In this document: piece by piece, positions 1,828-60,528 of the stretch
Layout: each line of letters begins with the position of its first letter
Numbering within the stretch: the stretch's first letter is position 1
DNA from: Myxococcales bacterium UBA1203
GTDB lineage: Bacteria > Myxococcota > Myxococcia > Myxococcales > UBA5297
DNA: 64,000 nt
Direction of reading: 5' to 3'
Assembly (NCBI GenBank): GCA_002309695.1
Contig: DBXV01000004.1
Coordinates: 36,458 to 100,457 of the forward strand
Program-made: the position numbers and the translations under genes
Notes under the pieces: model-generated
Seen by the model: only the letters and a program-made list of their open reading frames with translations
Told to the model about the DNA's origin: nothing
Database searches by the model: none

Positions 1828-3564
1828 TCACCTCAGGGAACTTCGGACCATCTCCGCGTCAGGATGCTTCGGCCACTTGTTCAAAAACTCCCGGTAATAG
1901 TGGCTGGCCAACTCTGTATTTCCCTGAATGGCGTAGCAGGACCCCAGGAACATGACGGCCTGTCCGTAATTGGGATTTTCCCGGAGGAGCTGCCGCAGCA
2001 GCTTGATGGCGGGCTCGGGCGAATCGCACTCCGCGCCCAGATAGCCATCCAGCAGATTCATCTTGTCCGAGGGAATCTCCACGTAGGGATAGCTCTTCTT
2101 TGCCTTCTTCTTCGCCTTGCCGGCGGATGCCGCCGCTGCCCTGGCCGCGGCAGCTGCCCTGCTCTCCTGAACCTTCTCAATTTTCGCGGCCAGCGCTTTG
2201 GCCTGAGGTGCCAGCGCGCTCACCTCGGCGATGTCCGCCAGGCGCTTTTCCGCGTCCTCGAGATTGCCGGCCTCAAAAAATTCCGTCGCCGCCTCAAGGC
2301 TGTCTGCCGCCTCTGCTTCACTCGCCGCCTTTTCCTGAAGCTCTTCCGCGCCGGGCATCTTCAGCTCGACGGCCCGGGTGAGCTCCTGAACGGCTTCGGC
2401 AAATTTCCCCTCTTCGAGAAGGGCCTTCCCCTTCCGCATCGCCTCCAGCCCCTCTGCGTCGGACGCATTCCGGGCGGGCGCTCTGGGCGCCGGAGCCCGG
2501 GACGCGTCGGCCGCAGCGGACGAAGCGGAGGAAGCAGCAGGCACATCGGCAGAAGCTGCAGGTGCTGCAGATGACGCGGCCGCCGCGGGAGCAGGTCTTT
2601 CCGCCGAAGGTTCATCTGCGGCGGGAGGCTGCACCTCAGGCGCGGGAGAAGCCGGCGCGGCAGCAGGCGGCAGCGGCGGTGGAATGTAAACCACGGGCTC
2701 AGGGGGAGGTGCCTTCCGGCCGAACGCCAGAAAGACAATCACGCCGAGGAGAGCGGCAAATCCAACAGCGCCGCCGATGATGGCGCTCTTGGGAAGTCCG
2801 CGGCCCGCGGCAGCCCCCATGCCCGCACCCGGCATAAAGAAGCAGAGCTTCACCTTGCCGGCCATGATGGTGTCGCCCGACGCCAGCGAGGACACCTCAT
2901 AGCGCTCGCCATTGACCTCGATGCCGTTGGCAGAGCCCAGGTCGATAATTTTCCATTCGCCGTTGGGCAGGCGGACGAATTTGCAGTGCTTCCGCGAGAG
3001 GCTTCGGTGGTCGATGGAAATGTCGTTCTCGAAGTCGCGGCCTAGGGTCAGAACGGTGCGGATGAAGGCGAATTCCTTGCCCTTGCTGTCGCCCGACTGA
3101 ACGACGAGGCGCGGCGCGCTCTCAATGGGAAGGTCATAGGAGGGGATGGTGTCGTAGGCCGTCGGATCATCGAGGCTGATAATCGACGTGGACATCCTCT
3201 GAGAGGGAACGTTCCCGAGGGGCGTGGGCGGCGCTTCCAGGTCGTGGGCGGCGGCAGGGACGCTGTCATCCGCATCCTTTTCGAGGACCAGCTCGTAATC
3301 GCCGATGCCGATGATGTCCCCGGGAGCGACAGAGACCTGCCCCTGAATCTGCCTCCCGTTCAGTGTGACGCCGCCGTAGCTGTGCTGGTCCTCCAGAAGG
3401 AACTGGCCGCCGGTGCGCGTCAGCTTCGCATGAGTTCGGGAGACGTTTCGCTCGGTCAGGCGGATGGCGTTGTCTTCCTGACGCCCAATCGTGAAGACCT
3501 TGTCCGCTGTCCCCAAAGGAATGCTGGTCTTCCGGCCTTCGTCGTCCTCGATAATCAGCTTCAT
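1828..3564 (-). CDS. FHA-domain membrane protein: two FHA domains, one TM helix, Pro-rich linker, C-terminal TPR-like repeats
   Basis: Long ORF; I place the start at ATG 3564..3562 (MKLIIEDDEGRK), preceded by a GGAGGA RBS. Two forkhead-associated (FHA) cores (TIGRQEDNAIRL...VSRTHAKL and LTLGRDFENDISI...LSRKHCKF), a hydrophobic helix (AIIGGAVGFAALLGVIVFLAF), a PPLPP-rich stretch, then helical TPR-like repeats (GNTELASHYYREFLNKWPKHPDAE). Confidence 0.8.
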   Translation of the reverse strand: MKLIIEDDEGRKTSIPLGTADKVFTIGRQEDNAIRLTERNVSRTHAKLTRTGGQFLLEDQHSYGGVTLNGRQIQGQVSVAPGDIIGIGDYELVLEKDADDSVPAAAHDLEAPPTPLGNVPSQRMSTSIISLDDPTAYDTIPSYDLPIESAPRLVVQSGDSKGKEFAFIRTVLTLGRDFENDISIDHRSLSRKHCKFVRLPNGEWKIIDLGSANGIEVNGERYEVSSLASGDTIMAGKVKLCFFMPGAGMGAAAGRGLPKSAIIGGAVGFAALLGVIVFLAFGRKAPPPEPVVYIPPPLPPAAAPASPAPEVQPPAADEPSAERPAPAAAASSAAPAASADVPAASSASSAAADASRAPAPRAPARNASDAEGLEAMRKGKALLEEGKFAEAVQELTRAVELKMPGAEELQEKAASEAEAADSLEAATEFFEAGNLEDAEKRLADIAEVSALAPQAKALAAKIEKVQESRAAAAARAAAASAGKAKKKAKKSYPYVEIPSDKMNLLDGYLGAECDSPEPAIKLLRQLLRENPNYGQAVMFLGSCYAIQGNTELASHYYREFLNKWPKHPDAEMVRSSLR

Positions 3565-3909
3565 CCGTCCTCCGCTGCGGAGCTTTTCTGTCGGCGGCCC
3601 GCGCGTCCCGGCTGGCCCGGGACGAATGATCTCAGCGGTGCGGCGCCCGAAAAAAAGCGGCCTTTTGGCACGCAGCCGGATGGCTCTCAAGAAATCTCAG
3701 GGGGACACCCACACGGAAATTCCTGCCGGAAATTTCAGAGTGAAAAAGACGCACGCGGCGCCTTTCCGGCATCCTGTCATGTCCGTCCACCGCCATCGCT
3801 CCCCTCGGCGAAATTCCCCCAAAAAAATCTGAAATAATTTCTTGACTCTGCCTTGGAAAACGACTAAAAGGCCGCTCCGTTGTTGACGCGGCCTCCATCA
3901 AAGCCGTCA

Positions 3910-5000: not shown

Positions 5001-6569
5001 TCAGGGCAGGCTGTCGATTTCCTCAAGGCTTCCCAGCCCCAGTTTGTCGGCCCGCAGCGCGGCGACGATGATTTCAATCTCGAAGTCCTGACGCCGGTCA
5101 TCCACCGTCATGGGAACAAGAGCGCGGACGGCGTCGTAAACGCGGCGGTTGCCCTCGGAGACGCCATTCAGTCCGTGCAGATCTAGGGCCTGGCAGGCGC
5201 CGAGCAGCGTGATGGCCAGCGTGCGCTCCGTGAGCTCGATGACGCGCAGTGCGTCGCGCGCGGCAATCGTCCCCATCGAGACCTTGTCCTGGTTGTGGCA
5301 CTCGGTGGAGCGGCTGAAAACGCTGGCAGGCATGGTCAGCTTCAGCGCCTCGGCGGTCAGGGCGCTCGCCGAAATCTGCATGGCCTTGAAGCCGTGGTGC
5401 GCATGCGCCTCGGGGCCGGTCTTGCCGAGCAGATTCGCGGGCAGGCCGTTGTTGAACGACTCGTTGCACATGAGCGCCAGCTGGCGGTCGGCGAGGTCGG
5501 ACAGATTCGCCACCGCGTTTTTGAGGCCGTCCATCGCGAAGCAGGCATGGCCGCCGTAGAAATTGCCGCTGTGCAGCACGTCGCCCGTCTCCGGGTCGAT
5601 GAGCGGGTTGTCGTTCACGCCGTTCAGCTCAACTTCGAGGAAGCGGCGAATCCAGGGCAGCGCGTCGAGGAGCACGCCGATCACGTGGGGCGCGCAGCGA
5701 ATCGAGTAGCGGTCCTGCACGCGCTTGGGATGCACGCATGTGTCCTTGTTGTAGGCGAGCTGCTCGGCAATCCATCGGGCCGCGAGGCGTTGTCCTGGAT
5801 GGGGCTTGAGGGCAAAAATGCGGTCGTCGAAGTGAGCCGCCTCGCCGCCCATGGCCGCACTGGCGAGCGCCGTAATCGCGCAGGCCATTTTTGCGAGACG
5901 ACGTGCGCGGTCAAAAGCAATGCAGCCCAGGGCCGTCATCACGCTCGTGCCGTTCATAATGGCGAGACCCTCTTTGGGCGCGAGGTGAATCGTCTCGATG
6001 CCGGCCTTCTTCATCGCCTCGGCAGAGGGCATCACCTTCCCGTCCAGCATGGCCTCGCGCTCGCCGATGAGCACAGCGGCTACATAGGAAAGAGGGGTCA
6101 GGTCGCCGCTCGCGCCCACCGAGCCCTCCTCGGGGATGCAGGGCAGGACGCGGGCGTTGAGGATGTCGCAGAGCTTTTCGAGCATCACGCGGCGCACGCC
6201 GGAATAGCCGCGTCCCAGCGCAGCCAGCCGCACGGCCAGCACCGCCGCCGCTTCGTACTCGCCCAGAATCCGCCCCGTGCCGCAGCCGTGGTAGCGCACG
6301 AGATTGTGCGGAAGTTCCTTCGCGAGCTCCGGCGAGAGCTTGTTCACGCAGCTGTCGCCCAGGCCGGTGCTGACGCCGTAAATCGTGAATCCGCCCGCCA
6401 GCTTCACGTTGAGCGCGTGGGAGCTCTTCTCAATCCGCCCGCTGAGCGCCGGGGAGGCGTCCAGCTCGATGCGGGTCTTGCCCCTGGCCAGGCCAAGGAT
6501 GTCCTCAATGGAGAGCGGCTTCTCGCCGACGCTGATGGTTTTGCGCTTGTCGTTCTTCAGATCGTTCAT
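5001..6569 (-). CDS. MIO-dependent aromatic amino acid ammonia-lyase family protein (histidine/phenylalanine/tyrosine ammonia-lyase fold)
   Basis: 522 aa; GSVGASGDLTPLSY contains the Ala-Ser-Gly triad that forms the MIO prosthetic group, and YGVSTGLG matches the HAL/PAL family N-domain. Substrate cannot be assigned by eye: the selectivity position reads YH, not the classic SH of HutH. Confidence 0.85.
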   Translation of the reverse strand: MNDLKNDKRKTISVGEKPLSIEDILGLARGKTRIELDASPALSGRIEKSSHALNVKLAGGFTIYGVSTGLGDSCVNKLSPELAKELPHNLVRYHGCGTGRILGEYEAAAVLAVRLAALGRGYSGVRRVMLEKLCDILNARVLPCIPEEGSVGASGDLTPLSYVAAVLIGEREAMLDGKVMPSAEAMKKAGIETIHLAPKEGLAIMNGTSVMTALGCIAFDRARRLAKMACAITALASAAMGGEAAHFDDRIFALKPHPGQRLAARWIAEQLAYNKDTCVHPKRVQDRYSIRCAPHVIGVLLDALPWIRRFLEVELNGVNDNPLIDPETGDVLHSGNFYGGHACFAMDGLKNAVANLSDLADRQLALMCNESFNNGLPANLLGKTGPEAHAHHGFKAMQISASALTAEALKLTMPASVFSRSTECHNQDKVSMGTIAARDALRVIELTERTLAITLLGACQALDLHGLNGVSEGNRRVYDAVRALVPMTVDDRRQDFEIEIIVAALRADKLGLGSLEEIDSLP

Positions 6570-6825: not shown

Positions 6826-7215
6826 TCAGCCGAAAAGCCAGATCATCAAGAGGGTGGCGGCACAGATGACCACAGCCAGAACGACAAACTCGTTGCCCTC
6901 CAGCCACGGCTTGGGCGCGGCAGCCTTGAGCTCGGGCATCACTCCGGCCTTGCGCCAGATGTCAGTCCCGGCGCGCCTCACGTCGTCCTCCGGCTCCAGA
7001 AATCCCAGATGATAGAGCTTTTGCAGCTCGGCCATGTCCGCCACGCCCATCTCCCGGCCCGAGGACCGAATGTAAAAGCGAAAGGCGGGCGTCTGCGGGT
7101 TTTGGACTGAGCTGCTGCCGGAAGTGCCCTCCGCCGGCCCCGCTTCACTCACGCGCGGCACAGCCTCGCCATCCGGGCCGTTTCCGACGTTTTCAGTTCG
7201 TTCCGCTTCCTCCAT
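6826..7215 (-). CDS. DUF4339-like (GYF-like) domain protein with C-terminal TM anchor
   Basis: 129 aa; AAGGAG RBS 7 nt upstream of ATG 7215. FRFYIRSSGREMGVADMAELQKLYHLGFLEPEDDVRRAGTDIWRKAG resembles the DUF4339 consensus. C-terminal hydrophobic helix FVVLAVVICAATLLMIWLFG. Confidence 0.55.
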   Translation of the reverse strand: MEEAERTENVGNGPDGEAVPRVSEAGPAEGTSGSSSVQNPQTPAFRFYIRSSGREMGVADMAELQKLYHLGFLEPEDDVRRAGTDIWRKAGVMPELKAAAPKPWLEGNEFVVLAVVICAATLLMIWLFG

Positions 7216-7503
7216 GCCGCGCTCCTTCAGGGCCGGCGCCTTTTGCCCGACCGGAGCAGCGCTTATTCACAAACGTCGGCCCGATGAAAACGGCTTTTCC
7301 GGACCTGCTCTGACGCCGCTTTTCGCCGCGCATCCCGGCCCAAATTCGGGGGTCAATCCGCCCGGAAACGCATTGACTGACAGAGGCCTGGCGACTAAGG
7401 GGCGCCGCCTTTTTTGGGAGCGGCGCCATTCGGTGTCCGCTCCTTTTTTCGGAGCGCCCGAAAAACCGGGCCTCACCCCAAACCAGAAGCGAGGAAACAC
7501 CGC

Positions 7504-8583
7504 ATGGCTAAGTTTGCGATCAATGGTTTCGGCCGCATCGGCCGCAACATCGTCCGCGCCATCTATGAGCGCGGTCTTGAGAAGGAAATCGACATCGTTG
7601 CCATCAACGACCTGACGGACGCCAAGACGCTGGCCTACCTGCTCAAGCACGACAGCATCCATGGCACCTTCAAGGGCGACATCACCTATGAGAACGCCGA
7701 GAAGGACGCCGACGGCAAGATCGTCAAGAACGGCTCCATCACCATCAACGGCAAGAAGATTGTGATTCTGAGCCTCCGCGATCCCGTCTATCCCTGGAAG
7801 GAACTGGGCGTGGACATCGTCTTCGAGTGCACCGGCATCTTCTGCAAGAAGCCCGGCGCGGCCAACGTCCACCTCGATCGCGGCGCCAAGAAGGTCATCA
7901 TCAGCGCTCCTGCCAAGGGCCCGGACAAGACCATCGTCATGGGCGTCAATGACAAGGAGTACGACAAGGCCAAGCATCACGTCATCTCCAACGCCTCCTG
8001 CACGACCAACTGCCTGGCCCCCATGGCCAAGGTGCTGCTGAACAAATTCGGCATCGTGAAGGGCCTGATGACCACGATTCACTCCTACACGAACGACCAG
8101 CGCATCCTCGACCTGCCCCACAGCGACCTGCGCCGCGCCCGTGCGGCCGCTCTGTCGATGATTCCGACGACCACCGGCGCCGCCAAGGCTGTTGGTGAGG
8201 TTCTGCCGGTGCTCAAGGGCAAGCTGGACGGTCTCGCGATCCGCGTTCCGACCCCCAACGTCTCCGTCGTCGACCTGACCGTCGAGCTGGAGAAGGAAGT
8301 CTCCGTCAAGGAAGTCAACGCCGCCATGAAGGCCGCCGCTGAGGGCGAGCTCAAGGGCATCCTCAACTACTCGGAAGAGATGACCGTCTCCACCGACTAC
8401 AACGACTGCCCCGCCTCCAGCACCTTCGACGCCCTCGACACCTACGTCATCGCCGACCGCGTTGATGATAAGGGCGAGAAATACGGCAAGATGGTCAAGG
8501 TCATGTCCTGGTACGACAACGAGTACGGTTACTCCAATCGCATGATCGACCTGGGCAAGATGATCGCCGACAAGGGCTTCTGA
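7504..8583 (+). CDS. gap: glyceraldehyde-3-phosphate dehydrogenase, type I
   Basis: Start at ATG 7504 ([19 protein letters not shown]) with a GAGGAA RBS. NAD-binding GFGRIGR motif, catalytic [21 protein letters not shown] near the C-terminus. Confidence 0.95.
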
Positions 8584-8618
8584 GCTTCAAAGCGCCGTTG
8601 AAGGCGCTGACGCCTGCA

Positions 8619-8662
8619 AAGGCCCGCTCCTCTCGACAAAAGATGGGCGGGCCTTTTTTGCT
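8619..8662 (+). terminator. rho-independent terminator after gap
   Basis: ggcccgctcctctcgacaaaagatgggcgggccttttttg: 7-bp GC stem plus T-run, preceded by a smaller hairpin gcgccgttgaaggcgc. Confidence 0.65.
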
Positions 8663-8725
8663 TTTCAAAAGCCCCGGCCCCCGCGCCCCGCTTCTTCATC
8701 TTCCAGCCACTTCAGGACCAGTCCC

Positions 8726-9313
8726 GTGATTCGCTCAGTCAAAAATATCCCGCTTGCCGGACGGCGCGTGTTCATCCGCGCAGACTTCGACCTGCCTCTG
8801 GGCAAAAAAAGCGGCCTTCCCGAACGCAGAATCAACGAATCGCTGCCGACCATCCGCCTGGCGCTGGAACAGAAGGCCCGCGTCGTTGTCCTCACGCATC
8901 AGGGCAGCCTCAAAGCCAGCTGGAACCCGGCGCGGACCATTGAGCCCAGCGTTCAATACGTCGTCAGTCAGCTGGATACCGAGGCGCGCCTGGCGGACGA
9001 CTGCGCCGGAGATGCCGTGCGCAAGCTGCTGAGCGAGCTGGGTGAGGGGCAGCTGCTCTTTCTGGAAAATCTGGCCTGCCGTCCGGACGAGATTGAGGCC
9101 AGCCAGGATTACGCCGCGTTTCTGGCCAGATACTGCGACGTCTATGTGAACGAGGCCTTCGCTCAGGCCAACCGGCGGCTGACCTCGACCGTCCTTCTGC
9201 CCGCGCTGGTGAAGGACAGGTGCGCGGGCCTCCACTTCATGGAGGAGGCCGTTCGGCTGGACGCCGTGCGCTTCAAGCATCTGCCGGCGTGCGAGGCGCT
9301 GAACGAGAGCTGA
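8726..9313 (+). pseudogene. phosphoglycerate kinase N-terminal (substrate-binding) domain only: truncated or degenerate pgk-like ORF
   Basis: 195 aa, GTG start. RVFIRADFDLPLG, VVLTHQGSL and DVYVNEAFAQANRRLTS align by eye with PGK RVFVRVDFNVPL / SHLGRP / DVYVNDAFGTAHRAHAS. Conserved basic residues of the 3-PG site are substituted. The ORF stops after the N-domain and no ATP-binding C-domain follows. Sits in the classical gap-pgk position but downstream of a terminator. Confidence 0.5.
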
Positions 9314-9410
9314 AACGCCGCTTTGGACCTCGCGTTTCCCTCGCCGCCATCATCATCGCTCGCTGAGGCGAGCCATCCCGCTCGCAAAACCGAGCCAAAG
9401 GATTGCCGCG

Positions 9411-10385
9411 ATGCACGTCAGGAATTTCCTTTCCCGGGACAAAATTCATTTGCTGCTGGCCGCCGCCGCAGCCCTCCATCTCGCCGCCTGCACCTCGGAA
9501 CCTCCGCCGCCTCCCCCGCCTCCCCCGCCGCCTCCTGAGCAGGCCAAGCCGCCCGAGCCGCCGCCTCCCCCGCCCGTCACGCCGTCGCTGACCCCCGAAG
9601 ACGAAGCGCGCCTGCAGACGGTCAAAATTGAAATCCAGGGCTCGCTGGAGGGCTCGCTGCGCAAGGCGCTGGACCGGGAGGTGGCCATTCCTCTCTCGCA
9701 GGTGACGGCCCGCATGCTGGTCTGGTGGGTCAACGTGGCCCGCGACCTCCGCAAAGGCGATGTGCTGACCATCGCCTACGAGGTGCAGAAGGGAAAAGAG
9801 CCCCTCCTCCACGCCGTGCGCTTCAACTCGGAAAAGGCCGGCAAGACCTTCCGCGCCTATCGCTTCAAGCCCGCGGGCCAGCCCTTCGCGCACTACTACG
9901 ACGAGACGGGGACCGAGATTGAGCAGACGCTGGTGGACAGCCCCATCGACGACTACGACCAGATCACGAGCATTCTGAAGGACGGCCGCAATCACAAAGG
10001 CGTCGATTTCCGCGCTCCCTCGGGCACGCCGGTGAAGATGCCTTTCAACGGCACGCTGGTGCGCAAGAACTGGAAGTTCACCGGCAACGGCAACTGCCTC
10101 GAATTTAAGGACCCCAAGGGACGCCGCATCATCTTCCTGCACCTGGAGGAGCTGCCCGAGGACCTCAAGGTCGGGCGCCAGTTCAAGAAGAGCGACGTGG
10201 TGGCCAAATCGGGCAACAGCGGCCGCTCATTCGCGCCCCACCTTCACTACCAGCTGGAAGACGCCAAGGGCCGGGTGCTGGACCCGTTCGAGGTCCACGA
10301 GACCTACCGCAAGACGATTCCCGCGGCGTCCAAGGCCTCCTTTGAGCTCACGGTCCTTCGCTACAACGAGCTGATGGACAAGTGA
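9411..10385 (+). CDS. M23 family metallopeptidase lipoprotein with poly-Pro linker
   Basis: Lipobox LAAC after a hydrophobic leader; PPPPPPPPPPPP...PPEPPPPPP linker; M23 motifs HKGVDF (HxxxD) and SFAPHLHYQL (HxH). Confidence 0.85.
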   Translation: MHVRNFLSRDKIHLLLAAAAALHLAACTSEPPPPPPPPPPPPEQAKPPEPPPPPPVTPSLTPEDEARLQTVKIEIQGSLEGSLRKALDREVAIPLSQVTARMLVWWVNVARDLRKGDVLTIAYEVQKGKEPLLHAVRFNSEKAGKTFRAYRFKPAGQPFAHYYDETGTEIEQTLVDSPIDDYDQITSILKDGRNHKGVDFRAPSGTPVKMPFNGTLVRKNWKFTGNGNCLEFKDPKGRRIIFLHLEELPEDLKVGRQFKKSDVVAKSGNSGRSFAPHLHYQLEDAKGRVLDPFEVHETYRKTIPAASKASFELTVLRYNELMDK

Positions 10386-10454
10386 GTTTCCAGAGGCAGC
10401 CGGCCTTTCGCGAGGGCCATTCACGCGAACGCAGTGACTGAGGAGACAAACGCC

Positions 10455-11651
10455 ATGACCCGCTGCACGCAATTTGGCCGGGTTCGCTTCGGCATCGACG
10501 TCCTGAGGGCGGACAATTTCCGGGCGCTCAAAGGGCTGAAAGTGGGTGCCATCTGCAACATCACCAGCGTGGACGGCGCCTTTGACCACCTGGCCGACCT
10601 CCTGATGGAAGCCGACGGCGTGACGCTGGGCGCGCTCTTCGGGCCGGAACACGGCGTGCGCGGCGAGGCGCAGGACATGATCGGCGTCTCCCACGCGCCC
10701 GACCCGGTGACGAAAATCCCAACGCACTCGCTCTACGGCGCGACCTTCGACTCGCTCTCGCCGACGCCGGAATCGCTCGACGGCCTCGACGCGCTCGTCT
10801 TCGACATCCAGGATGTGGGGAGCCGCTACTACACCTACGTCTATACGATGGCGCTCGCGATGAAGGCCGCCGCCCAAAAAGGCCTCGCCTTCTTCGTCCT
10901 CGACCGGCCCAACCCCATCAACGGCGTCACGCTCGAAGGGAACATCGTCCATCCCGGCTTTGAGTCGTTCGTCGGTCTCTATCCCCTGCCCAACCGCCAC
11001 GGCATGACGGCGGGCGAGCTCGCGCGTTACTTCAACGAGGTTCACGGCATCGGCTGCGACCTCCGCGTCATCGGCTGCGAGGGCTGGAAGCGCACGATGT
11101 GGTGGGAGGACACGGGGCGCGCCTTCATTCCGCCTTCGCCCAACATGCCCACTGTGGACACCGCCGTGGTCTATCCGGGCCTCTGCTTCATCGAGGGAAC
11201 GAACATGTCCGAGGGGCGCGGCACGACGAAGCCCTTCGAGTGGATTGGCGCGCCTTTCCTCGATCCTGTGGCCTTCACACATGCGCTGGAGGCCGAAGAC
11301 CTGCCCGGCGTCGCCTTCCGCGCAACCTCCTTCCGACCCACCTTCCAGAAGCACGCGGGCAAGAGCTGCGGCGGCGCCATGATTCACGTCACCGACCGGA
11401 ATTCATTTCTGCCCGTGCGCACCGGCATCGCGATTTTGAGGGCCGCGCGGGCGGTCGGCGGCGAGGCGTTTCAGTGGCGCACCGAAAAATACGAATTCAT
11501 CGACGACAAGCCCGCCATCGACCTCCTCACCGGCACGGACACGGTCCGCAAAGCCATCGACGCGGGAAAGAGCCTCGATGCGTGCATGGCGGGGTTTGAT
11601 GATGAATTGAATACATTCAAAAAAGTCAGGGAAAGGTTTTTGGGGGATTAA
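10455..11651 (+). CDS. DUF1343 family protein (exo-beta-N-acetylmuramidase NamZ-like)
   Basis: The track ORF starts at GTG 10434. I prefer ATG 10455 (MTRCTQFG), which has a GAGGAG RBS. FGIDVLRADNFRALKGLKVGAICNITSVDG matches the DUF1343/NamZ N-terminus. Full length ~400 aa as in that family. Confidence 0.8.
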   Translation: MTRCTQFGRVRFGIDVLRADNFRALKGLKVGAICNITSVDGAFDHLADLLMEADGVTLGALFGPEHGVRGEAQDMIGVSHAPDPVTKIPTHSLYGATFDSLSPTPESLDGLDALVFDIQDVGSRYYTYVYTMALAMKAAAQKGLAFFVLDRPNPINGVTLEGNIVHPGFESFVGLYPLPNRHGMTAGELARYFNEVHGIGCDLRVIGCEGWKRTMWWEDTGRAFIPPSPNMPTVDTAVVYPGLCFIEGTNMSEGRGTTKPFEWIGAPFLDPVAFTHALEAEDLPGVAFRATSFRPTFQKHAGKSCGGAMIHVTDRNSFLPVRTGIAILRAARAVGGEAFQWRTEKYEFIDDKPAIDLLTGTDTVRKAIDAGKSLDACMAGFDDELNTFKKVRERFLGD

Positions 11652-11833: not shown

Positions 11834-14800
11834 TTACTGCTCGTAAATCTTCACCTCCACTGGTCCGGCGCCAGTTGTTCGTGTGCCATTGGTAGTGGCG
11901 ACAATGGTCAGAGTCTGACCTGGGCTCATTGTATAGCGAATACAGGAATGATGGCTGCCCTGATAACGCGAATAGCAGGTGGAGTCGCTGCCGTTGTCGT
12001 TGCTAGTATAAGTACTTAATCCACCATATCCTCTCGGCCGGAATGGCGCTGGAACCAAATATAAATAGCCATCAATACCGCTCTGGAACAAAGCCTCGAA
12101 TATCAGTCGCTTGGATGTATCCGAGTCATTGGTAATGGTATAGGCTTTATATGGATATGTATAATTATTGTTATAATATGGTGTGGTAGAAGATCCTCTG
12201 TTCATAAAATAAGGCGATCCGGAGGAGTTATAGGCACCTCCCACCGTATTATCATCGGAATAGTCAGATAATGCGACTGGATAATACGTATCGCTGTCCA
12301 GTCGAATGACCGTATCCGGACAGGTTTCCAGCGTATCACCTACGCCGTCACCGCACGGTGATTCTGCGCAAACAGAAGGCTGCACAATGGAGCAAACATA
12401 CCCGTCCTCCACCTGGCAGTTATCATTACAGCCGTCACCATTGTCCGTATTATAGTCATCACATTGTTCGCCACTAAACATCCTGCCATCACCACAGGGA
12501 TTGCACAGCGAATAATAAACATTTCCATAAGCCTGTCGTCCTAATGAATCTCTGGGTCCCCAGACTGTATTTCCATAGTAAGAATTTGCGCAGTGATACC
12601 CATATTCCACTGTGCAGGAAGAAGAGCAGCCATCATCATCGTAGGTATTGCCGTCATCGCATCCCTCGCCATTGGAATAAATTCTGTCACCGCAGGTGAT
12701 GGGATAACAAATACTTCCGTGCAAATAATGACGCTCGTAACTGATATTATAATACTGCGAAGAAACACACTGCCAGCCGCTCTCCACACCACACGTCGAG
12801 CTGCATCCATCTCCGTCATCTAAGTTTCCGTCGTCGCAGCTTTCATTGTTGCCGCCGGTATAGCCATTACCGCAGACATATTTCGCACATTGTTCCCTGC
12901 ATGTCCCATAAGAACAGGTATAAGTACAATACCCATTCTCCGGCTGGCAGGAGCTGCTGCATCCATCTCCGTCCTCTAAGTTGCCGTCATCACAAGATTC
13001 ATTGCCTGTACGCAATCCGTTTCCGCACCCGGACTTAAAGAGATGCAATGCGCTCTTTCCCGTTTGATTTGTATAATAAGATGTAACAACAATGTATGCT
13101 GTTTCTCCAACGCCAATAACTTTTTCTTTCAGGCTGTTATGATAACCATAATAATAATTAACAGATTGGCTGTTCGAACAGGATGACGAAGGGAACGATC
13201 CTCGATAATAATACATCGAGTAATAATTATAGTAATTGCTCGTAAGCAGCGCATCCAGCTTCTGCTCAGTGCCTGTTTCATTCACGATAGCATAAACATT
13301 ATAATAATAACTTCCTCCTGACAGAGTATTGGAGCAGGTGCGATCCCACCGCCGACTGTCTGTTGTCAGCCTGTCATAAACAATTAAATCCAGGCTGGAA
13401 CCGTCTTTCCACCGATAGGCACAGGAAGAGGTGCAGTTGGAGGACTCCGTTCCATTCAAAGCACCGTCGTCGCACGTCTCGCCGGGGTCCTGAATGCCGT
13501 CGCCGCAGGTGATTCGGCCATTGCGGGTGCAGCTGGAGGTGCAGAGGTCGCCGCCATTGTCTTCCCCCTCGTCGCATTCCTCTCTGGCGTCCCGGATTCC
13601 GTCGCCGCAAATCATGGATGTGCAGTCGAGGCGGCATGTGGCTTCGGGGCTAAATCCATTAGCTGTTCCCTGGTCACACTCCTCGCCGGACTCGCGGTAG
13701 TTGTTGCCGCAATACGCCTCCGTCTGCCCGTCGCAGGTCTTATTGCAGTAGCCGCGGATGCCATTGAAGATGCCGTCGTCGCAGATTTCTCCCTCGTCTT
13801 CGTCCACGCGTCCGTCGCCGCAGACAGGGCCAGTCCCCTTACAGCCGGGGAGGCAGTGGCCATAAGTGCCGTCGTTCACGCCATCGTCGCAGTATTCGCC
13901 GTAATTTCGATCCATGAGGCCATCGCCGCAGCTGGGCAGCTTGCAGTTGGGACGGCAGCGGTTGGGCAGCATCATGTTGTATTCAGTGCCCTCATCGCAT
14001 TCCTCGCCGTTCAGACGCGAAATCATGCCGTCGCCGCAGAAGGCGCCGTATTCGCGGCAGTGGTAGCACTTCTTCTCGCCCTCGCTCGCGGCATAGCGGC
14101 CCGTGTTGACGCCGTCGTCGCACACTTCGCCCTCATCCAGCTCGCCGTCGCCGCAGTAGCTGCCATAGCCCCGGCACTCCAGGCACTTGGGCTGACCGCC
14201 GAAGCCGACATAGGCGCCGGTATTGACGCCGTCGTCGCAGACCTCGTCCGCGTCTTTGATGGCGTCGCCGCAGCCGGAGAGGCGGCAGTTCGTCCGGCAG
14301 ACCTGTTCCGTAGCACCGGCAGCCAGAGGAGCATCCGTGTTGCGGGCGCCATCGTCGCACTCCTCGCCCTCGTCCAGGATGCCGTCGCCGCAGGACACCA
14401 GGTGGCATTCGCTCGCGCCGGTGGAAGCGTTCACCGTGCATTTCCAGCCGTCCATCTGATGGCAGCTTGTGTCACATCCTTGGGTTCCGTCCGGTGTGCC
14501 AAAGTTCTCGATACTGCCGAAGTCGCAGTCCTCACCGCTGTCCACCACGCCGTCGCCGCAGCGGGCAGGGGTGCAGTTGGTGCGGCAGGTCAGGCCAATC
14601 ACGCCGCCGAAATCGCTGTTGGACTGGCCGTTGTCGCAGCGCTCGCCGTCGGTCGTCGCGCCGTCGCCGCAGTAGGGGCCCCAGCCGGTGCAGGCCAGGC
14701 AGCGGACTTCACGCGCATTGGCCGCCCAGCGCCGCGAGTTGTCGCCGTCGTCACAGACTTCGCCGTCGTTGACCACGTTGTCGCCGCACCACGGCAGGCG

Positions 14801-17800
14801 GCAGTTGAGGCGGCACTTGTGCGCGGCGGTGGAGCCGTTGCCGGCCGAATAGAGATAGGGGTTGGTGATGAGGCCCGCGGTTCCAAGGTCGCATTCCTCG
14901 CCCTCGTCCAGATAGCCGTCGCCGCAGGTGATTTGCCGACAGGCAGAGACGCCGCCCATATCCCAGCGGCACATCCAGCCTTCGGCCACGGAGCAGTCGG
15001 CCATGCAGCCGTCCGAGCCGTCCAGCGGCAGCTCATTCTCCAGCGAGCCCGTGTCGCACAGTTCGCCGTCGTCCTTCACGCCGTCGCCGCAGCGGGTGTT
15101 CATGCAGTTGGCGCGGCACCTGGCGTTGGGCAGGTTGGAATTGCCCGAGACGTAGCGTCCCTGAGCGTCCAGAACTTCCGGCCCATCGTCGCAGGACTCA
15201 CCCTCATCGACGATGCCGTCGCCGCACGTGGCCAGAATGCAGGTGGTCCGGCACAGAGAGCCCTCCTGGCCCGGCTCGTCGCTGTTCTGCTCACCCAGAT
15301 CGCACTCTTCGCCGTTGTCCACGACGCCGTCGCCGCAGCGTCCCGGCGTGCAGTCCAGACGGCAGGTGGCATTCGGTTTTTCAGAGTTGCCCGAGACGTA
15401 ATTGCCTCTCGCATCGGTGATTTCCGGGCCGTCGTCGCACTCCTCGTTCTGGTCCCGCGTGCCGTCGCCGCACCGGCGGGCAGTGCAGTCCGTCCGGCAG
15501 GGCACATCGGGGCCATTGCCGTTGGCAGTGCCGTTGTCGCAGCTCTCATTCGGGTCCTGAATGCCGTCGCCGCAGCGGGCGGGCGTGCAGTCTTTGCGGC
15601 AGGACGCGCCCGATTCATTGCTGTTGGCGTCTCCCTCGTCGCAGGTCTCGCCGTCATCCACCACGCCGTCGCCGCAGCTCGCCAGACGGCAGGTTTCGGG
15701 ACGGCAGGTCTCGCCGTGAATGCCGGCCAGAGCGCTGTTGGCGTCGCCCAAATCGCACTCTTCGCCGCTGTCCTTCACGCCGTCGCCGCAGCGCCGCGCG
15801 CGGCAGTTGGTCCGGCAGGGCGCATCCGGCGCTTCGCTGTTGGCCTCGCCCTGATCACACTCCTCGTTCCCCGTGACTTTGCCGTCGCCGCACGAGAGGA
15901 ACTTGCAGGCTTCTCCGCATTCAGCGCCGTCAGTGCCGTTGAGCGCGCCCAGGTCGCACGCCTCGCTCGAATCCACCACGCCGTCGCCGCAGCTGGGCAG
16001 CGCGCAGTTCGTCCGGCAGGCATCCGCCGCCGTGTCGCTGTTGGCATCCCCGTTGTCGCAGGCCTCGCGCCGGTCCTTCACGCCGTCGCCGCACCGGGGC
16101 TTTTGACAGTCAGGACGGCAGGGCGCGTCGGGAAGCAGGCTGTTGCCTTCGGCCGCGTCGCAGGCCTCGCCCTCATCGACAAAACCATCGCCGCATCTGG
16201 GAGCCGTGCAGTCCACGTGGCAGGCGTTCGCGGTCTGGCTGTTGTTCTGGCCGTCGTCGCACTGCTCGCCCTCGTCCTTCACGCCGTCGCCGCACGTGGG
16301 CAGCGCACAGTTCGTGCGGCAGGCATCCGCCGTCGTGTCGCTGTTGTCTCCGCCCTCGTCGCACTGCTCGCCGTCATCTGTCACGCCGTCGCCGCAGCGC
16401 CTGAGCGAACAATCCAGCCGGCACTCCGCATTGGGCGCGTCGCTGTTGGCATCCCCCAGGTCACAGGACTCATCCGCGTCTTTCACGCCGTCGCCGCAGC
16501 GGCGGGGCGTGCAGTCCGTCCGGCACTCCGCGTTGGGCGCATCGCTGTTCTGCTCGCCAAGATCGCAGGATTCGCCGTCATCGACGATGCCGTCACCGCA
16601 CCGCTGGGCTGTGCAGTCCGTCCGGCAGAGGGCATCCGGCTCGTCGCTGTTCTGCAAGCCCAAGTCGCACGTCTCGCCCTCGTCCTTCACGCCGTCGCCG
16701 CACCGCTGAGCGGTGCAGTCCGACCGGCAGGGAACATCGGGCAGGTCAGCATTGCCGGAAACATACGCGCCCTCGTCATCGGCCACATACGCCCCCAGAT
16801 CGCAGGCCTCGCCCTCATCGGTCACGCCGTCGCCGCAATGGGCAGGCGTGCAGTCCGTCCGGCAGGCATTGGCCTCTGTGTCACTGTTCTGCTCGCCCAG
16901 GTCGCAGATCTCGCCGTCATCGACCACGCCGTCGCCGCACCGCTTCACCCGGCAGTCCGGGCGGCAGCGCGCGTCGGGCAGAAGGCTGTTGCCTGACACC
17001 AGCGCGCCGGTGGCCTCGTCAAAAACTTCGGGACCCTCGTCGCAGGCTTCCTCAAAGGCCGTCTCAAAGGCCTCGCCGTTGTCCACAACGCCGTCACCGC
17101 ATCTGGGCAGCGTGCAGTTCGTCCGGCAGGTCAGAGGATCTGTGTCGCTGTTGGCATTTCCCTCATCGCACTGCTCGATGGAGTTCTTCACGCCGTCGCC
17201 GCAGGCCGCGGGAACACAGTTGGGACGGCAGACGGCCTCATCCGCCGCACTGTTGCCCGAGACCCACTCGCCCGCGTCATTCAGAACCTCGGCGCCCTGG
17301 TCACAGCCCTCGTCCGCGTCCTTCACGCCGTCGCCGCACTTGGGCAGCGCGCAGTTCGTCCGGCAGGCGTCCGCCTCTGTGTCGCTGTTCGCCGCGCCGT
17401 TGTCGCAGGCCTCGCCCTCATCCACGACGCTGTCGCCGCACCGTTTCAGCGTGCAGTCTGTCCGGCATTCCGCGTTGGGTTCGTCCGAATTCGCCTCGCC
17501 CAGATCGCAGGCTTCTTCGGAATCGCGCACGCCGTCGCCGCACCGGGGCAGGCCGCAATTTGTCCGACATTTAGCACCCGCGGCATCCGAATTGGCGCCG
17601 CCGAGGTCACAAGCCTCACCTTCATCTACAACACCGTCACCACAGCGCCTGAGTGTGCAGTCCGTCCGGCATTCCGCATTGGGCTCATTGGAATTTTGTT
17701 CACCCAAATCGCACTGCTCGCCGTCGTCCAAGGTTCCGTTGCCGCAGAGAATGTTCACGGGGACAGAGGCGTCCTCTTCTTTCTCTTTGCTGCTTTCATT

Positions 17801-17947
17801 GCAGCCGGGCAGAGCGCAGGCAGCGGCCAGAGAAACAGCCATGACCAATGATGAAATTCTTCCTCGAAATACAAAACGTCCGACAGAGGAAAGAATACCG
17901 GCATTATTTATAGATTTCATTGTCGTCATATCCGTTCTCCTTTCCAT
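11834..17947 (-). CDS. giant (2037 aa) secreted lipoprotein: ~34 tandem Myxococcus-type cysteine-rich repeats (TIGR02232-like, CGDG..D.GE.CD.G) plus a ~530-aa Tyr/Asn/Ser-rich C-terminal beta region
   Basis: Single uninterrupted ORF. N-terminal signal/lipobox (MKSINNAGILSSVGRFVFRGRISSLVMAVSLAAACALPGC). aa ~60-1505 are repeats of the form C(G/R)DG(V/I)xDxGExCDxGxxNS...CRTxCxLP(R/K). The CAYRW transition at nt ~13425 leads into a beta-rich region with four CGNG..E.CDDGN..DGDGCS..C..E.G modules. ATG 17947..17945 overlaps the stop of gene B. Confidence 0.85.
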   Translation of the reverse strand: MERRTDMTTMKSINNAGILSSVGRFVFRGRISSLVMAVSLAAACALPGCNESSKEKEEDASVPVNILCGNGTLDDGEQCDLGEQNSNEPNAECRTDCTLRRCGDGVVDEGEACDLGGANSDAAGAKCRTNCGLPRCGDGVRDSEEACDLGEANSDEPNAECRTDCTLKRCGDSVVDEGEACDNGAANSDTEADACRTNCALPKCGDGVKDADEGCDQGAEVLNDAGEWVSGNSAADEAVCRPNCVPAACGDGVKNSIEQCDEGNANSDTDPLTCRTNCTLPRCGDGVVDNGEAFETAFEEACDEGPEVFDEATGALVSGNSLLPDARCRPDCRVKRCGDGVVDDGEICDLGEQNSDTEANACRTDCTPAHCGDGVTDEGEACDLGAYVADDEGAYVSGNADLPDVPCRSDCTAQRCGDGVKDEGETCDLGLQNSDEPDALCRTDCTAQRCGDGIVDDGESCDLGEQNSDAPNAECRTDCTPRRCGDGVKDADESCDLGDANSDAPNAECRLDCSLRRCGDGVTDDGEQCDEGGDNSDTTADACRTNCALPTCGDGVKDEGEQCDDGQNNSQTANACHVDCTAPRCGDGFVDEGEACDAAEGNSLLPDAPCRPDCQKPRCGDGVKDRREACDNGDANSDTAADACRTNCALPSCGDGVVDSSEACDLGALNGTDGAECGEACKFLSCGDGKVTGNEECDQGEANSEAPDAPCRTNCRARRCGDGVKDSGEECDLGDANSALAGIHGETCRPETCRLASCGDGVVDDGETCDEGDANSNESGASCRKDCTPARCGDGIQDPNESCDNGTANGNGPDVPCRTDCTARRCGDGTRDQNEECDDGPEITDARGNYVSGNSEKPNATCRLDCTPGRCGDGVVDNGEECDLGEQNSDEPGQEGSLCRTTCILATCGDGIVDEGESCDDGPEVLDAQGRYVSGNSNLPNARCRANCMNTRCGDGVKDDGELCDTGSLENELPLDGSDGCMADCSVAEGWMCRWDMGGVSACRQITCGDGYLDEGEECDLGTAGLITNPYLYSAGNGSTAAHKCRLNCRLPWCGDNVVNDGEVCDDGDNSRRWAANAREVRCLACTGWGPYCGDGATTDGERCDNGQSNSDFGGVIGLTCRTNCTPARCGDGVVDSGEDCDFGSIENFGTPDGTQGCDTSCHQMDGWKCTVNASTGASECHLVSCGDGILDEGEECDDGARNTDAPLAAGATEQVCRTNCRLSGCGDAIKDADEVCDDGVNTGAYVGFGGQPKCLECRGYGSYCGDGELDEGEVCDDGVNTGRYAASEGEKKCYHCREYGAFCGDGMISRLNGEECDEGTEYNMMLPNRCRPNCKLPSCGDGLMDRNYGEYCDDGVNDGTYGHCLPGCKGTGPVCGDGRVDEDEGEICDDGIFNGIRGYCNKTCDGQTEAYCGNNYRESGEECDQGTANGFSPEATCRLDCTSMICGDGIRDAREECDEGEDNGGDLCTSSCTRNGRITCGDGIQDPGETCDDGALNGTESSNCTSSCAYRWKDGSSLDLIVYDRLTTDSRRWDRTCSNTLSGGSYYYNVYAIVNETGTEQKLDALLTSNYYNYYSMYYYRGSFPSSSCSNSQSVNYYYGYHNSLKEKVIGVGETAYIVVTSYYTNQTGKSALHLFKSGCGNGLRTGNESCDDGNLEDGDGCSSSCQPENGYCTYTCSYGTCREQCAKYVCGNGYTGGNNESCDDGNLDDGDGCSSTCGVESGWQCVSSQYYNISYERHYLHGSICYPITCGDRIYSNGEGCDDGNTYDDDGCSSSCTVEYGYHCANSYYGNTVWGPRDSLGRQAYGNVYYSLCNPCGDGRMFSGEQCDDYNTDNGDGCNDNCQVEDGYVCSIVQPSVCAESPCGDGVGDTLETCPDTVIRLDSDTYYPVALSDYSDDNTVGGAYNSSGSPYFMNRGSSTTPYYNNNYTYPYKAYTITNDSDTSKRLIFEALFQSGIDGYLYLVPAPFRPRGYGGLSTYTSNDNGSDSTCYSRYQGSHHSCIRYTMSPGQTLTIVATTNGTRTTGAGPVEVKIYEQ
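13425..17770 (-). repeat. coding tandem repeat array (~34 copies x ~126 nt) inside giant gene A
   Basis: Periodic CGDG/CDDG-encoding units visible across the whole interval at both DNA and protein level. Boundaries estimated by residue counting. Confidence 0.7.
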
Positions 17948-20900
17948 TAGTCCTCAGTATAAACATTAACTCTGGCCAGACCGCCGCCTGTCAGGCGTGT
18001 ATCATTGGTTGTCACGACAACCGATACGGTCTCGCCCGGCGCCAATGTATAATGCAGACAGGAATGACCGGTTCCCTGATTGCCTGTGTACGGAGTCTTA
18101 CAAGATTCTTCTGAGCCGCCCCATGTGGATGTCAGCCAGCCTGACCTTGACGAAGGATTAAACGGCGGGGTGAATAATTCGATAACGCCATTTCTCTCGT
18201 ATTTTGCTTCAATAATCAGCGCCTTATATTCAGATGTCGCATTCGTTAATGTGTAAGCGCGGAAGGGCGAGAATCCGCAATTATCCTGATTTTGGCTCTG
18301 CTGACTCGGAGAGCATGAATACTTCGGATAAATATAAGGCGTATCAATGACGCTGTTTAATGTTCCGCCCAGAAGATCTCCTTCTTCCGCCGACAGAGCC
18401 AGAGGGAACTCGGTCGAATTAGTGATCTTTATTCCGCATTCAGCACCTTCCATGACGCCGTCGCCGCAGACATCGGGGCCGCACATGGAGGGCCATGAAG
18501 CTGAACAAATATATCCATCTTCTACTTGGCACGCAGAGCTGCATCCGTCGCTGCCAGCCAGATTCCCGTCATCGCAGCTCTCACCGCCCTTCACCCTGCC
18601 ATTACCGCAGAAATCGCAGGAAGACATGGCAGACCAGACGTGCATGGCCAGAGTGCTGCTGATAGTCTGAGTCAATGTCTGATCTTCAATTGTGCATGAA
18701 GCATTCGCCTCCACTGTACAATCGGCAGCGCAGCCATCTCCATCTGCATTGTTGCCGTCGTCACATTCCTCGTTGCTGTCTTGGAAGCCATCACCGCAAA
18801 TGTTGGCTTCACAATGATTACCCACGTAGAAGCGTGAAACATCATCCGTCATATAAGTATAAACGGCCTGAATACATGTGCGTCCATCCTCGATGGTGCA
18901 GTCGGCAGCACATCCGTCACCATCTTCCCGGTTTCCATCATCGCATTCCTCAAAACCGTCTCTCGAACCATTGCCGCACATGGGGCTTTCAGGCTCAATA
19001 AGCTGATTGGCAGACAGGCATTCCCCGTCGTAGCAGGGGCACATAAGTTTGGTAAAGCCCTCCCAGCACCAGGCCTCGCAGCGGCCATACTCCGACTTGC
19101 AGTCGCTGCTGCATCCATCGCCGTCGATGTTATTTCCATCATCGCATTCTTCACCGTGGTAACTATCCCCATACCAAATAGGATAGCCGTCGGCGCCGCG
19201 TTCCAGATCACGAATGCCATTGCCGCAGCCCGTTTTGGCAATGCGAATCAGACCATGACAATTCTGCATTTCCGAGTAGGAATAGTCATTATCATAGGTG
19301 GATATTATTATGTAAGCGGTTCGTCCCGCAGGAAGGGACATTTCCTGCAAAATACTCTGCCATGAATCCCCGCAGTCATCGTCGTCACCATCATCATTGT
19401 AATTACAGCCATTGTTTGGGAAATTATCCAAATAATAGAAAAGATAACCGTCACAGCTAAAGTTAGCTTTAATATCAATGATCAAATCTTCAGTTGTTTC
19501 ATTAGTCAGAGCATATTTCTGATAGCGATGGGTTCCTGGCATTAGAACATCAGTACACTGGCTGTTGTGCCCATCATACCAATAGGGGCGTTCCCACGTC
19601 GGACTCGATTCATCCAAGGCATGGAAAATCGTCCAACGGGCATTGGGATCAGTCCAGCGATATGCACATTCTGATGTGCAGTTAGAGCCTTCGGTTCCAT
19701 TCAGGTCGCCGTCGTCGCAGGCTTCACCCGGATCCTGAATACCGTCGCCGCAGGTCGCCTCTCCTGCGCGCTTGCAGTCTGTTGTGCAGAGTTCGCCGCC
19801 GTTGTCGCTGCCGAGGTCGCAGTCTTCCATGGCATCTCTGCGTCCATCACCGCACACAATGGAAGTGCAGTCGGAATGGCAGGTCGAAACGGGGAATTCG
19901 CCATTGTAGTATTCGTCATCACACTCTTCTCCCTCATCCACATTGCCGTCGCCGCAGAAAGCCGCCACAGCCAGGCCCGGATCGCTGGAAGAGGTCATGG
20001 CCGTGCAGCTGACATTGCACCTGCCGGGGAGGCCATTGAGGATGCCGTCGTCGCAGTTTTCGATGCCGTTCTGAATGCCGTCGCCGCAGCCAAAGGCCAG
20101 CGCGCTGCAGTTGGACATGCAGTGTCCGTAGGTGCCGTCGTTGATGCCGTCGTCGCACCACTCGCCCACGTCGAGAATGGCGTCGCCGCAGCCGGCAAAG
20201 ACACATGAAGTCCGGCAGGGGGGAACCATTTCAGAGCCGGTCATGGGCGCATCGGTGTTTCCCGCGCCGTCGTCACACTGCTCGCCATTGGAGGGCACGC
20301 CGTCGCCGCAGTAGCTGTTCCACGACTGGCACCTGCTGCAGGTGCGTCCGGCGGCCGTGGGGGAATAGCGGCCTGGCGTGTTCACGCCGTCGTCGCAGAC
20401 TTCGCCCTTATCCGCATCCACATGGCCGTCGCCGCAGTGGGCGTCGAAGGAAGCGCACCCGGGGGCACAGATGGGCGCCTGTCCCGCTGCCGCATAGCCG
20501 CCCGCGTTCACGCCGTCGTCGCAGGCTTCACCGCTGTCCACGATGCCGTCGCCGCATCCGGCAATTTTGCACGTCGTCCGGCAGACAGCGGTGGTCTCGT
20601 GTCCGGTCAGGGGCGCGTCGCTGTTGCCCGCCGAGGTGACGGCGGGATTCGTGACCATGCCCACGGTGCCGTTGTCGCATTCCTCGCCTTCATCCAGCCA
20701 GCCGTTGCCGCAGCCCACTGTCCGGCAGCTGGTGACGCCGCCCGTGACAGAGCACGTCCAGCCGCTCGCCACCTGGCAGGACGCGGTGCAGCCGTCGGTG
20801 CCGTCCAGAGGCTTCGTCCGATCGAGACTTCCAGTGTCGCAGGATTCGCCGGGGTCCAGAACGCCGTCGCCGCAGCGGGCGGCCATGCAGTTCATCCGGC

Positions 20901-28228: not shown

Positions 28229-28436
28229 TATACTGCCTCCATGAAAAAAGCCGGAGAAACTCCGGCCGGGTAAAATCCCCCTGTTGATATTGTCAGGCAA
28301 AAAAAGCGGCGGCGTCTATGGAGGCGAAAAAGGCAAGTCAACCGGGAAACATGCCCCCTTGCCTCCCTGTGCCTGTCTGCGCCATAGCGCCCCGCTTTTC
28401 GTGCCTTTCATCATCACTTTGCCCCGCGAGGCCCCC

Positions 28437-29228
28437 ATGAGCGACCAGAAGAAGGACACGCATCCGGCCCAAGACGCCAAAAAAGACGGCGTTGTCATTC
28501 CGGCGCAGCATTCGGCGCTGATTCATTCGCTGCCCGAGGATATGATGGCGCATTTGCGGAATTGTCCGCGCGACAGGCCGGTCATTTTGCTGATGCGGCA
28601 TTCCATCCGCGGGCCTCTGCCCAAATCGGGCGGCGACGAAGTGCCTCTGACGGACGAGGGGCGAAATCTGGCGCGGCAGTTCGGCGGACAAATCGCCCGG
28701 GCCGAGCCTCCGTGCCTTCTGGCGAGCGTCCATTCCAGCCCTGTTCTCCGCTGCCGTCAGACGGCGCAGGAAATTATGAATGGCGCGGACCGCGTTTTTC
28801 CTCCGGACCCCATGCCCTGCCTGTCGCTGCCGGGGATTTTTCTGCTGGACAGCGGCGCGGCCGTGAATGCCTGGCGGGAGCTGGGCGGCGACGAGGTTCT
28901 GCGCCGCATGTCTCTGGAAGTGCCGCTGCCTCTGCCGGGAATGACGCCTGTCGAGAGCGCGGTGGCGGCCGTTTTGATTCAGATGTTCAGCAAAACAGAC
29001 AATTTACCTGGCCTGCATGTCTTTGTGACCCACGACGCCATCGTCCTGCCCGTGGCCGCGCGCCTTCTTGGACAAGAGCTGAGCATGAAGGACTGGCCCG
29101 CCTTTCTGGATGGTATTTTTATCTGGAATGATGATCAGGGAAACATCCGCTCTTTATATCAAAAAAATGCGGGCTGTCGGCCAGCGGACAGAATTCTTCA
29201 TCCCGCATCCCCCAAATTGCAGCCTTGA
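28437..29228 (+). CDS. histidine phosphatase superfamily (phosphoglycerate-mutase-like) protein
   Basis: Start at ATG 28437 (MSDQKKD). VILLMRHSIRGP (RH phospho-acceptor motif) and the second conserved His in HVFVTHDAIVLPV. Confidence 0.65.
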   Translation: MSDQKKDTHPAQDAKKDGVVIPAQHSALIHSLPEDMMAHLRNCPRDRPVILLMRHSIRGPLPKSGGDEVPLTDEGRNLARQFGGQIARAEPPCLLASVHSSPVLRCRQTAQEIMNGADRVFPPDPMPCLSLPGIFLLDSGAAVNAWRELGGDEVLRRMSLEVPLPLPGMTPVESAVAAVLIQMFSKTDNLPGLHVFVTHDAIVLPVAARLLGQELSMKDWPAFLDGIFIWNDDQGNIRSLYQKNAGCRPADRILHPASPKLQP

Positions 29229-60276: not shown

Positions 60277-60528
60277 ACGCACAAATCCTTTCAGTCAGTG
60301 GGGGAAGGCGCGGCCAGGCAGGCGCCCCCCGGCCAAAAAAGCGGCGGGCCTCTAGTCGCGCGACCCTCAAAATTCAAGGCAGCGGGGGTGAGGGATACAA
60401 ACTGAAGGGAGGCTGAAAACCGGCTTCTTCGCGGCTGTAATTCCCCTCTTGAAATGTGCCCGCCGGACCGGAAACCGGCCCGCCCGTTTGTCCGTTCCGA
60501 ACCGTCTTCCCTGAGGAGGCGCACAGCC

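Follow-up and report, generated by a model that had tools for sequence, protein, structure and literature searches.

The ORF directly downstream of gap encodes a phosphoglycerate kinase (PGK) derivative of 195 aa, here called mini-PGK, which has no ATP-binding lobe; its gene is genuine and maintained by purifying selection. The best reading, with a probability of roughly 60%, is that mini-PGK is a conserved, selected PGK derivative without catalytic activity that works by binding a ligand or a protein partner. All positions refer to the window, i.e., the whole 64-kb stretch of DNA that was analysed. PGK is a nearly universal, two-lobe, hinge-bending textbook enzyme. Exactly one of its lobes is kept in mini-PGK, together with a C-terminal segment that is structurally its own, in what appears to be the old pgk slot. 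It would be a clean example of a pseudoenzyme made by domain excision, a natural model of PGK domain autonomy and, possibly, a new element that regulates or senses lower glycolysis in rumen and gut bacteria not yet cultured.

Gene and genomic setting

The mini-PGK coding sequence (8726–9313, + strand) starts with GTG, as the initial annotation had described, and stops with TGA, and a Shine-Dalgarno-like AGGA (8714–8717, + strand) lies 8 nt 5′ of the start. The GC content at codon positions 1, 2 and 3 was 0.69, 0.42 and 0.80, matching the neighbouring genes. An antisense ORF of 181 aa (8735–9280, − strand) was rejected, being without homology, with the PGK match and the constraint both sitting in the + frame. 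Pfam PF00162 matched residues 5–179 to profile positions 1–174 of 379 (E = 3.1e-36; 125.6 bits, with a cut-off of 27 bits), so that the likeness to the PGK N-domain proposed at the outset is significant and covers the N-lobe only. With the NCBIfam PGK/TIM model the score was 120 bits, far short of the 883 bits required, showing that mini-PGK is not a full PGK. The closest solved structure by sequence was the PGK of T. maritima (1vpe), which was matched over residues 4–168 (E = 1.3e-25).

The C-domain had also been said to be absent, and this was borne out by tblastn. E. coli PGK, its sequence taken from an annotated record, matched the six frames of the 64-kb window only through its N-lobe, at 8744–9229, with no significant match to the query beyond residue 164. 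Neither a canonical pgk nor a C-lobe remnant was detected in the window or in related loci with E. coli PGK, P0015 and P0021 as queries, and no C-lobe coding sequence was found within 10 kb of mini-PGK in 14 related loci. The stop codon is separated by 97 nt from the start of the next gene, which encodes an M23 peptidase as previously stated, and there is therefore no space for a C-lobe. A sequencing error or frameshift hiding an intact gene was looked for, and C-lobe similarity appeared in no frame; a full-length pgk cannot be restored here by any frameshift.

Upstream, gap (7504–8583, + strand) encodes a type I glyceraldehyde-3-phosphate dehydrogenase (GAPDH) of 359 aa with PF00044 and PF02800 domains, for which TIGR01534 scored 438.8 bits against a cut-off of 367 and the catalytic motif was visible in the translation. 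It lay directly 5′ of mini-PGK in eight of nine lineages, the exception being JAISIF01 (L001/L012). The rho-independent terminator previously reported between the two genes was located at 8621–8659 (+ strand) by RNA folding of the intergenic region, with a GC-rich stem GGCCCGCTCC...GGGCGGGCC followed by TTTTTT; its loop of more than 8 nt escapes a simple scanner. A hairpin GGCCCGCTC...GAGCGGGCC with 6–7 T followed gap in L004, L005, L007, L008, L010, L011 and L031, and the terminator was kept nearly base for base in all eight lineages with gap upstream, whose GAPDH proteins were ∼76–98% identical. A promoter scan found no sigma-70-like promoter in 7200–10600. Given the terminator and the lack of a detected promoter, expression of mini-PGK may depend on read-through or on an unrecognised promoter.

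The M23 peptidase gene (9411–10385, + strand; PF01551, E = 4.5e-18) is a neighbour outside the mini-PGK unit, and a NamZ-type exo-muramidase is also encoded downstream in the window. The gene 3′ of mini-PGK encoded an M23 peptidase in L004 as well, a CarD/CdnL-like protein in L005, L006 and L008–L011, a BOF protein in L001 and a MotA/ExbB protein in L007. A canonical PGK relative of the Myxococcota type (P0213) sits in a gap-pgk-tpiA operon (L095), which places mini-PGK in the ancestral pgk slot, with tpiA gone, in keeping with the canonical gap-pgk position assigned to it earlier.

Upstream of gap, the window encodes an aromatic/histidine ammonia-lyase (5001–6569, − strand), a GYF_2 protein (6826–7215, − strand) and an FHA/TPR protein (1828–3690, − strand). 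The lyase and the FHA protein recurred near mini-PGK in L001 and L004, and the GYF_2 protein in L010. Further downstream, two giant proteins (2037 and 2009 aa) with cysteine-rich CRTDC...RCGDGV.D.GE.CD repeats are encoded side by side (11834–17947 and 17947–23976, both − strand); Pfam detected DUF4215 in fragments of each, and a 2032-aa counterpart occurred at the same place in L004. They are followed by a 991-aa protein (25325–28300, − strand) with EGF-like repeats and three domains of Fib_succ_major, a family associated with Fibrobacter. A 314-aa protein (28284–29228, + strand), encoded 19 kb from mini-PGK, weakly matched branch 1 of the histidine-phosphatase superfamily (E = 3e-7), which includes phosphoglycerate mutases. 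The window also encodes a carboxyltransferase subunit of the oxaloacetate-decarboxylase/pyruvate-carboxylase type (58780–60282, − strand) and a DUF362 protein with a 4Fe-4S dicluster (60454–61623, + strand). These last two genes hint at an anaerobic metabolism, and the gene content of the window would fit an anaerobic, gut-associated organism.

Domain architecture, substrate site and conservation

Three parts can be distinguished in mini-PGK. Residues 1–168 (8726–9229, + strand) correspond to the N-lobe core of PGK, with a Rossmann-like fold and a remodelled 3-phosphoglycerate pocket; residues 169–182 (9230–9271, + strand) are the counterpart of interdomain helix 7, based on the profile alignment and the helices of the structural model; and residues 183–195 (9272–9310, + strand), with the sequence FKHLPACEALNES, share homology with the very C-terminal end of the full-length enzyme (GKxLPGVEAL). 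When 77 full-length PGKs were made into a profile for hmmsearch, family residues 2–181 aligned with positions 5–185, i.e., the N-lobe and helix 7. The family consensus of the last 13 residues, K-x-LPACEAL, resembles the G-K/R-x-LPG-V/I-EAL of PGK. When the tail of each of the 10 sequences was slid along the 399-column PGK profile, the highest-scoring of 387 positions was always the C-terminus, in register, and in a shuffled control for the window protein 4 of 500 tails scored as well as the real one. Both mafft --add and a MAFFT alignment built de novo from 116 sequences placed the tail at the PGK C-terminus, and P187, the proline of its LP motif, was invariant in 116 of 116 sequences. Between helix 7 and the tail, the mini-PGK family has an alignment gap over canonical columns ∼186–384, the whole nucleotide-binding lobe of ∼200 residues. 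The homology of the tail to the PGK C-terminus shows that the C-lobe was lost through an in-frame internal deletion and not through a premature stop. The architecture is thus an internal deletion instead of a truncation, and of the term ‘truncated’ used in the initial annotation the missing C-lobe stands, whereas the last ∼13 residues match those with which a full-length PGK ends.

The last helix of PGK packs on the N-lobe, and the C-terminal segment is structurally part of that lobe. Helices 7 and 14 link the two lobes, and a short link (residues 404–408) leads to the last helix, 15 (PMC7729029). AlphaFold2 models made with the 10 family sequences alone had a pLDDT of 72, with ∼40 in the tail; with the 116-sequence alignment including canonical PGKs, the pLDDT was 92.3 and the pTM 0.91, the tail reached 80–89, and helices were predicted at residues 169–177 and 180–184.

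In PGK, R38 acts at the substrate carboxylate. In the pig and human enzymes, the 3-phosphate is held by R65, R122 and R170, H62 contacts the bridging oxygen of the phosphate, and the substrate's 2-oxygen is contacted by D23 and N25; R65 and R170 are also salt-bridged to D218, which stabilises the closed, active state (PMC7729029). The substrate site was compared, in human PGK numbering, between 70 canonical Myxococcota-type PGKs and 10 mini-PGK sequences. Five residues found in all 70 canonical proteins were replaced in the family: N25 by D, L63 by Q, R122 by A and H169 by N (10/10 each), and R65 by N, S or T (S in the window protein). H172, present in 69 of the 70, was replaced by L or F. The D in place of N25 also occurs in some divergent full-length PGKs. 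In the window protein's own numbering, the substitutions are D22, Q59, S61, A117, Q147, N149 and L152. Two of the three arginines of the phosphate clamp (R65 and R122) are therefore replaced in all members, while D23, R38, H62 and R170 are invariantly kept throughout the family; H62 and R170 were likewise invariant in the 70 canonical proteins. The claim that key basic and His residues had been replaced accordingly holds for R65 (S), R122 (A) and H169 (N), but not for H62, R38 and R170. Among N-lobe columns conserved at ≥90% in canonical PGKs, 36 of 72 were changed in the family. The substitutions are uniform across the family and not scattered, and therefore argue for a remodelled pocket under selection as opposed to decay.

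A search of 5.8 billion proteins recovered orthologues in nine 90%-identity clusters, 58–99% identical to the window protein and originating from independent rumen and gut metagenomes. The shared start gives 195 codons in every cluster, and the end is identical too. Two members, P0002 (L004 10001–10636) and P0006 (L011 3823–4518), were called with upstream extensions, as proteins of 211 and 231 aa; the alignment together with the conserved ribosome-binding site and GTG indicates a true start that gives 195 aa. In the eight loci read as DNA, the position of the start codon was always the same (GTG, except TTG in L008), CAGGA or GGGAG lay 8–10 nt 5′ of it in all eight, and the stop was aligned. 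No internal stop or frameshift was present in any copy. Pairwise dN/dS between orthologues, which the initial annotation had proposed as a check, was 0.10–0.38 (Nei–Gojobori), with dS from 0.5 to >2 and thus near saturation. The corresponding values for the neighbouring gap were 0.05–0.31, its dN being ∼3 times lower than that of mini-PGK.

The family is sharply delimited. A family profile searched against the 5.8 billion proteins gave 333–377 bits for members and at most 202 bits for the next best, which were ordinary full-length Myxococcota PGKs of 37–45% identity, and in a library of 1.84 billion cluster representatives mini-PGK formed a single 50%-identity cluster. In a neighbour-joining tree, the mini-PGK clade was monophyletic (bootstrap 100) on a long stem; its position among Myxococcota-type PGKs had a bootstrap of only 4–23, and its grouping with other divergent PGKs is probably due to long-branch attraction. 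Of 185,579 species genomes, only two were carriers, namely ‘Myxococcales bacterium Hm464_bin50’ (JAISIF01) and ‘Myxococcaceae bacterium RGIG5499, Sheep_Colon’ (JAFVYB01). The exact window protein was also encoded by a 184,874-bp contig at NCBI and recurred in runs SRR094926 and SRR094437, which we take to be cow-rumen metagenome, and one member of a mini-PGK cluster was present on 58 contigs.

Proposed function and alternative readings

Mini-PGK is best explained as the product of a functional gene and as a self-contained N-lobe, in which the core of the substrate lobe is joined by interdomain helix 7 and a short C-terminal segment. It arose when the ∼200-residue nucleotide-binding lobe was excised in frame from within a pgk of the Myxococcota type, apparently that of the ancestral gap-pgk(-tpiA) slot, and would then have been fixed in a narrow rumen and gut clade that is labelled Myxococcales or Myxococcaceae by NCBI. 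With the low bootstrap of the clade placement, it is genomic position that points to an origin from the operonic pgk. Phosphate transfer by mini-PGK is predicted from its sequence to be impossible, which would make it a pseudoenzyme: the fold is retained, the catalytic lobe and key residues are lost, and the gene is under purifying selection, the loss of activity being the predicted element.

Mini-PGK most likely acts by binding. A candidate ligand would be an acidic small metabolite akin to glycerate or 3-phosphoglycerate, bound in the remodelled pocket, where D23, R38, H62 and R170 would still be available. Alternatively, a protein partner may bind to the surface bared by the loss of the C-lobe, and GAPDH is the first candidate because the adjacency to gap is conserved; a specific role with GAPDH or with a given ligand is, for either version, only a guess. 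Mini-PGK would be made at a lower level than gap, through read-through of the terminator or from its own promoter. PGK activity presumably comes from a gene at another place in the genome, a canonical PGK being likely because GAPDH is intact and highly constrained. None of ten candidate Myxococcota PGKs fell in the NCBI accession ranges of MDR0965124 and MBR2978620. Counting against the reading of mini-PGK as a selected binding protein are its dN, ∼3 times that of gap, and the terminator between the two genes with no promoter-like site found. The adjacency to gap, which is lost in JAISIF01, could also be inherited synteny and not a functional link.

Among the alternatives, a non-catalytic carrier or buffer of the GAPDH product, which still binds 3-phosphoglycerate or 1,3-bisphosphoglycerate, is a minor possibility. 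Isolated PGK N-domains can bind 3-phosphoglycerate, and such a function would agree with the conserved adjacency to gap and with the half of the substrate site that is retained. However, small or neutral residues have taken the place of two of the three phosphate-clamp arginines and of H169 in every member, which argues against the canonical binding mode. It is unlikely that the clade has no full-length PGK at all and that a substrate lobe beside gap handles or senses the GAPDH product in a new way, either as a GAPDH-bound regulator or carrier or as half of a two-component kinase whose partner has gone unrecognised; if true, mini-PGK would be the first single-lobe PGK in nature to have a physiological role.

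A split PGK, in which the N-lobe protein and a separately encoded C-lobe protein rebuild an active kinase, is quite improbable. Engineered fragments of yeast PGK have been reported to complement each other, and the module is complete in structure, including helix 7 and the C-terminal segment, and retains the four residues D23, R38, H62 and R170. Such a kinase would nevertheless have to work without R65 and R122, which are gone in all members, R65 being one of the two arginines that bridge D218 (PMC7729029), and neither the 64-kb window nor the stretch within 10 kb of mini-PGK in the 14 related loci contained a gene for a C-lobe.

That the ORF is a decaying pseudogene, i.e., a recent pgk remnant heading for loss, was one of two readings offered by the initial annotation and is rejected here as highly improbable. 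The missing C-lobe, the changes in half of the conserved N-lobe columns and the elevated dN count in its favour. Yet at least nine lineages share the same start and end, and length and ribosome-binding site have also stayed the same despite near-saturated synonymous sites; dN/dS was 0.10–0.38, with dS reaching 1 or more, without a stop or frameshift in any copy, the GC pattern is of the coding type, and the active-site replacements are uniform across members and not random. The other reading, a neofunctionalised single-domain PGK-like protein, is favoured as far as sequence goes, the substitutions in the substrate site being the same in every member. An assembly or sequencing artefact, with a frameshift or mis-join hiding a full-length pgk, has a practically negligible probability, given the exact protein in separate sequencing runs and on the long NCBI contig, orthologues from many independent assemblies, and the 97 nt to the next gene with C-lobe similarity in no frame.

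Automatic annotation (NCBI, IMG) names the mini-PGK proteins ‘phosphoglycerate kinase’. They should not be annotated as such because they have no C-lobe and neither R65 nor R122, and pathway reconstructions based on the current annotation may credit a PGK that is possibly absent at this locus.

Comparison with known PGK-related proteins

The literature searched, the coverage of which was incomplete, yielded no account of a conserved N-lobe-only PGK in bacteria. The closest known system is the canonical Myxococcota-type PGK (EC 2.7.2.3, PF00162; P0213), a full-length PGK being about 390–420 aa long. Its N-lobe is homologous to mini-PGK, with 37–45% identity and the same fold; both proteins are encoded downstream of gap, and mini-PGK retains helix 7, the C-terminal LPxxEAL segment, D23, R38, H62 and R170. 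In contrast to the canonical enzyme, mini-PGK is devoid of the ∼200-residue nucleotide-binding lobe with its GGAKVSDK, WNGPMG, GGGDS and STGGGA motifs, R65, R122, N25, H169 and H172 are replaced, and no tpiA follows. A second point of reference is given by the isolated N-domains of yeast and Geobacillus PGK, which were engineered for folding studies and showed that the N-lobe folds alone. These keep the wild-type substrate site, whereas in the natural mini-PGK the pocket is remodelled and the C-terminal segment retained.

One further short protein, P0014 (L092; 199 aa), has like mini-PGK an N-lobe, a helix and a tail (LAGLPAVEALL). It was 67% identical to the divergent full-length P0021 and only ∼45% to the mini-PGK family, indicating a separate event, and it keeps R65, H169 and R170, with R38 and R122 lost. 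It was rejected as a second conserved short family, being a singleton on a 717-bp contig whose nearest short matches were partial genes at contig ends, and it may represent an independent excision or an assembly artefact. P0021 itself and L065 6001–8235 are full-length PGK paralogues of Myxococcota genomes with degenerate C-lobe motifs (ACGAGT for GGGDS, SSGGDA for STGGGA) and, judged by these motifs, are candidate full-length pseudo-PGKs. Like mini-PGK, they are derived from PGK and have lost canonical residues; unlike it, they have kept a degenerate C-lobe. P0010–P0013 were rejected as relatives of the family, since they are tandem PGK–PGK fusions whose high score is the sum of two N-lobe scores. 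P0010 and P0012 are ∼795 aa long with both PGK copies canonical-looking, and P0013 is 1918 aa long with five PGK stretches.

Shortened PGK derivatives are also known from kinetoplastids and diplonemids, in which truncated or ‘dead’ PGK-like proteins include 26–28 kDa products and a truncated PGK of T. grayi, some of which were considered probable genomic junk in a review (PMC7729029). They resemble mini-PGK in being PGK-derived, shortened and without catalytic or nucleotide-binding residues. The kinetoplastid and diplonemid proteins are, however, eukaryotic and of independent origin, whereas mini-PGK is a precise N-lobe module under purifying selection.
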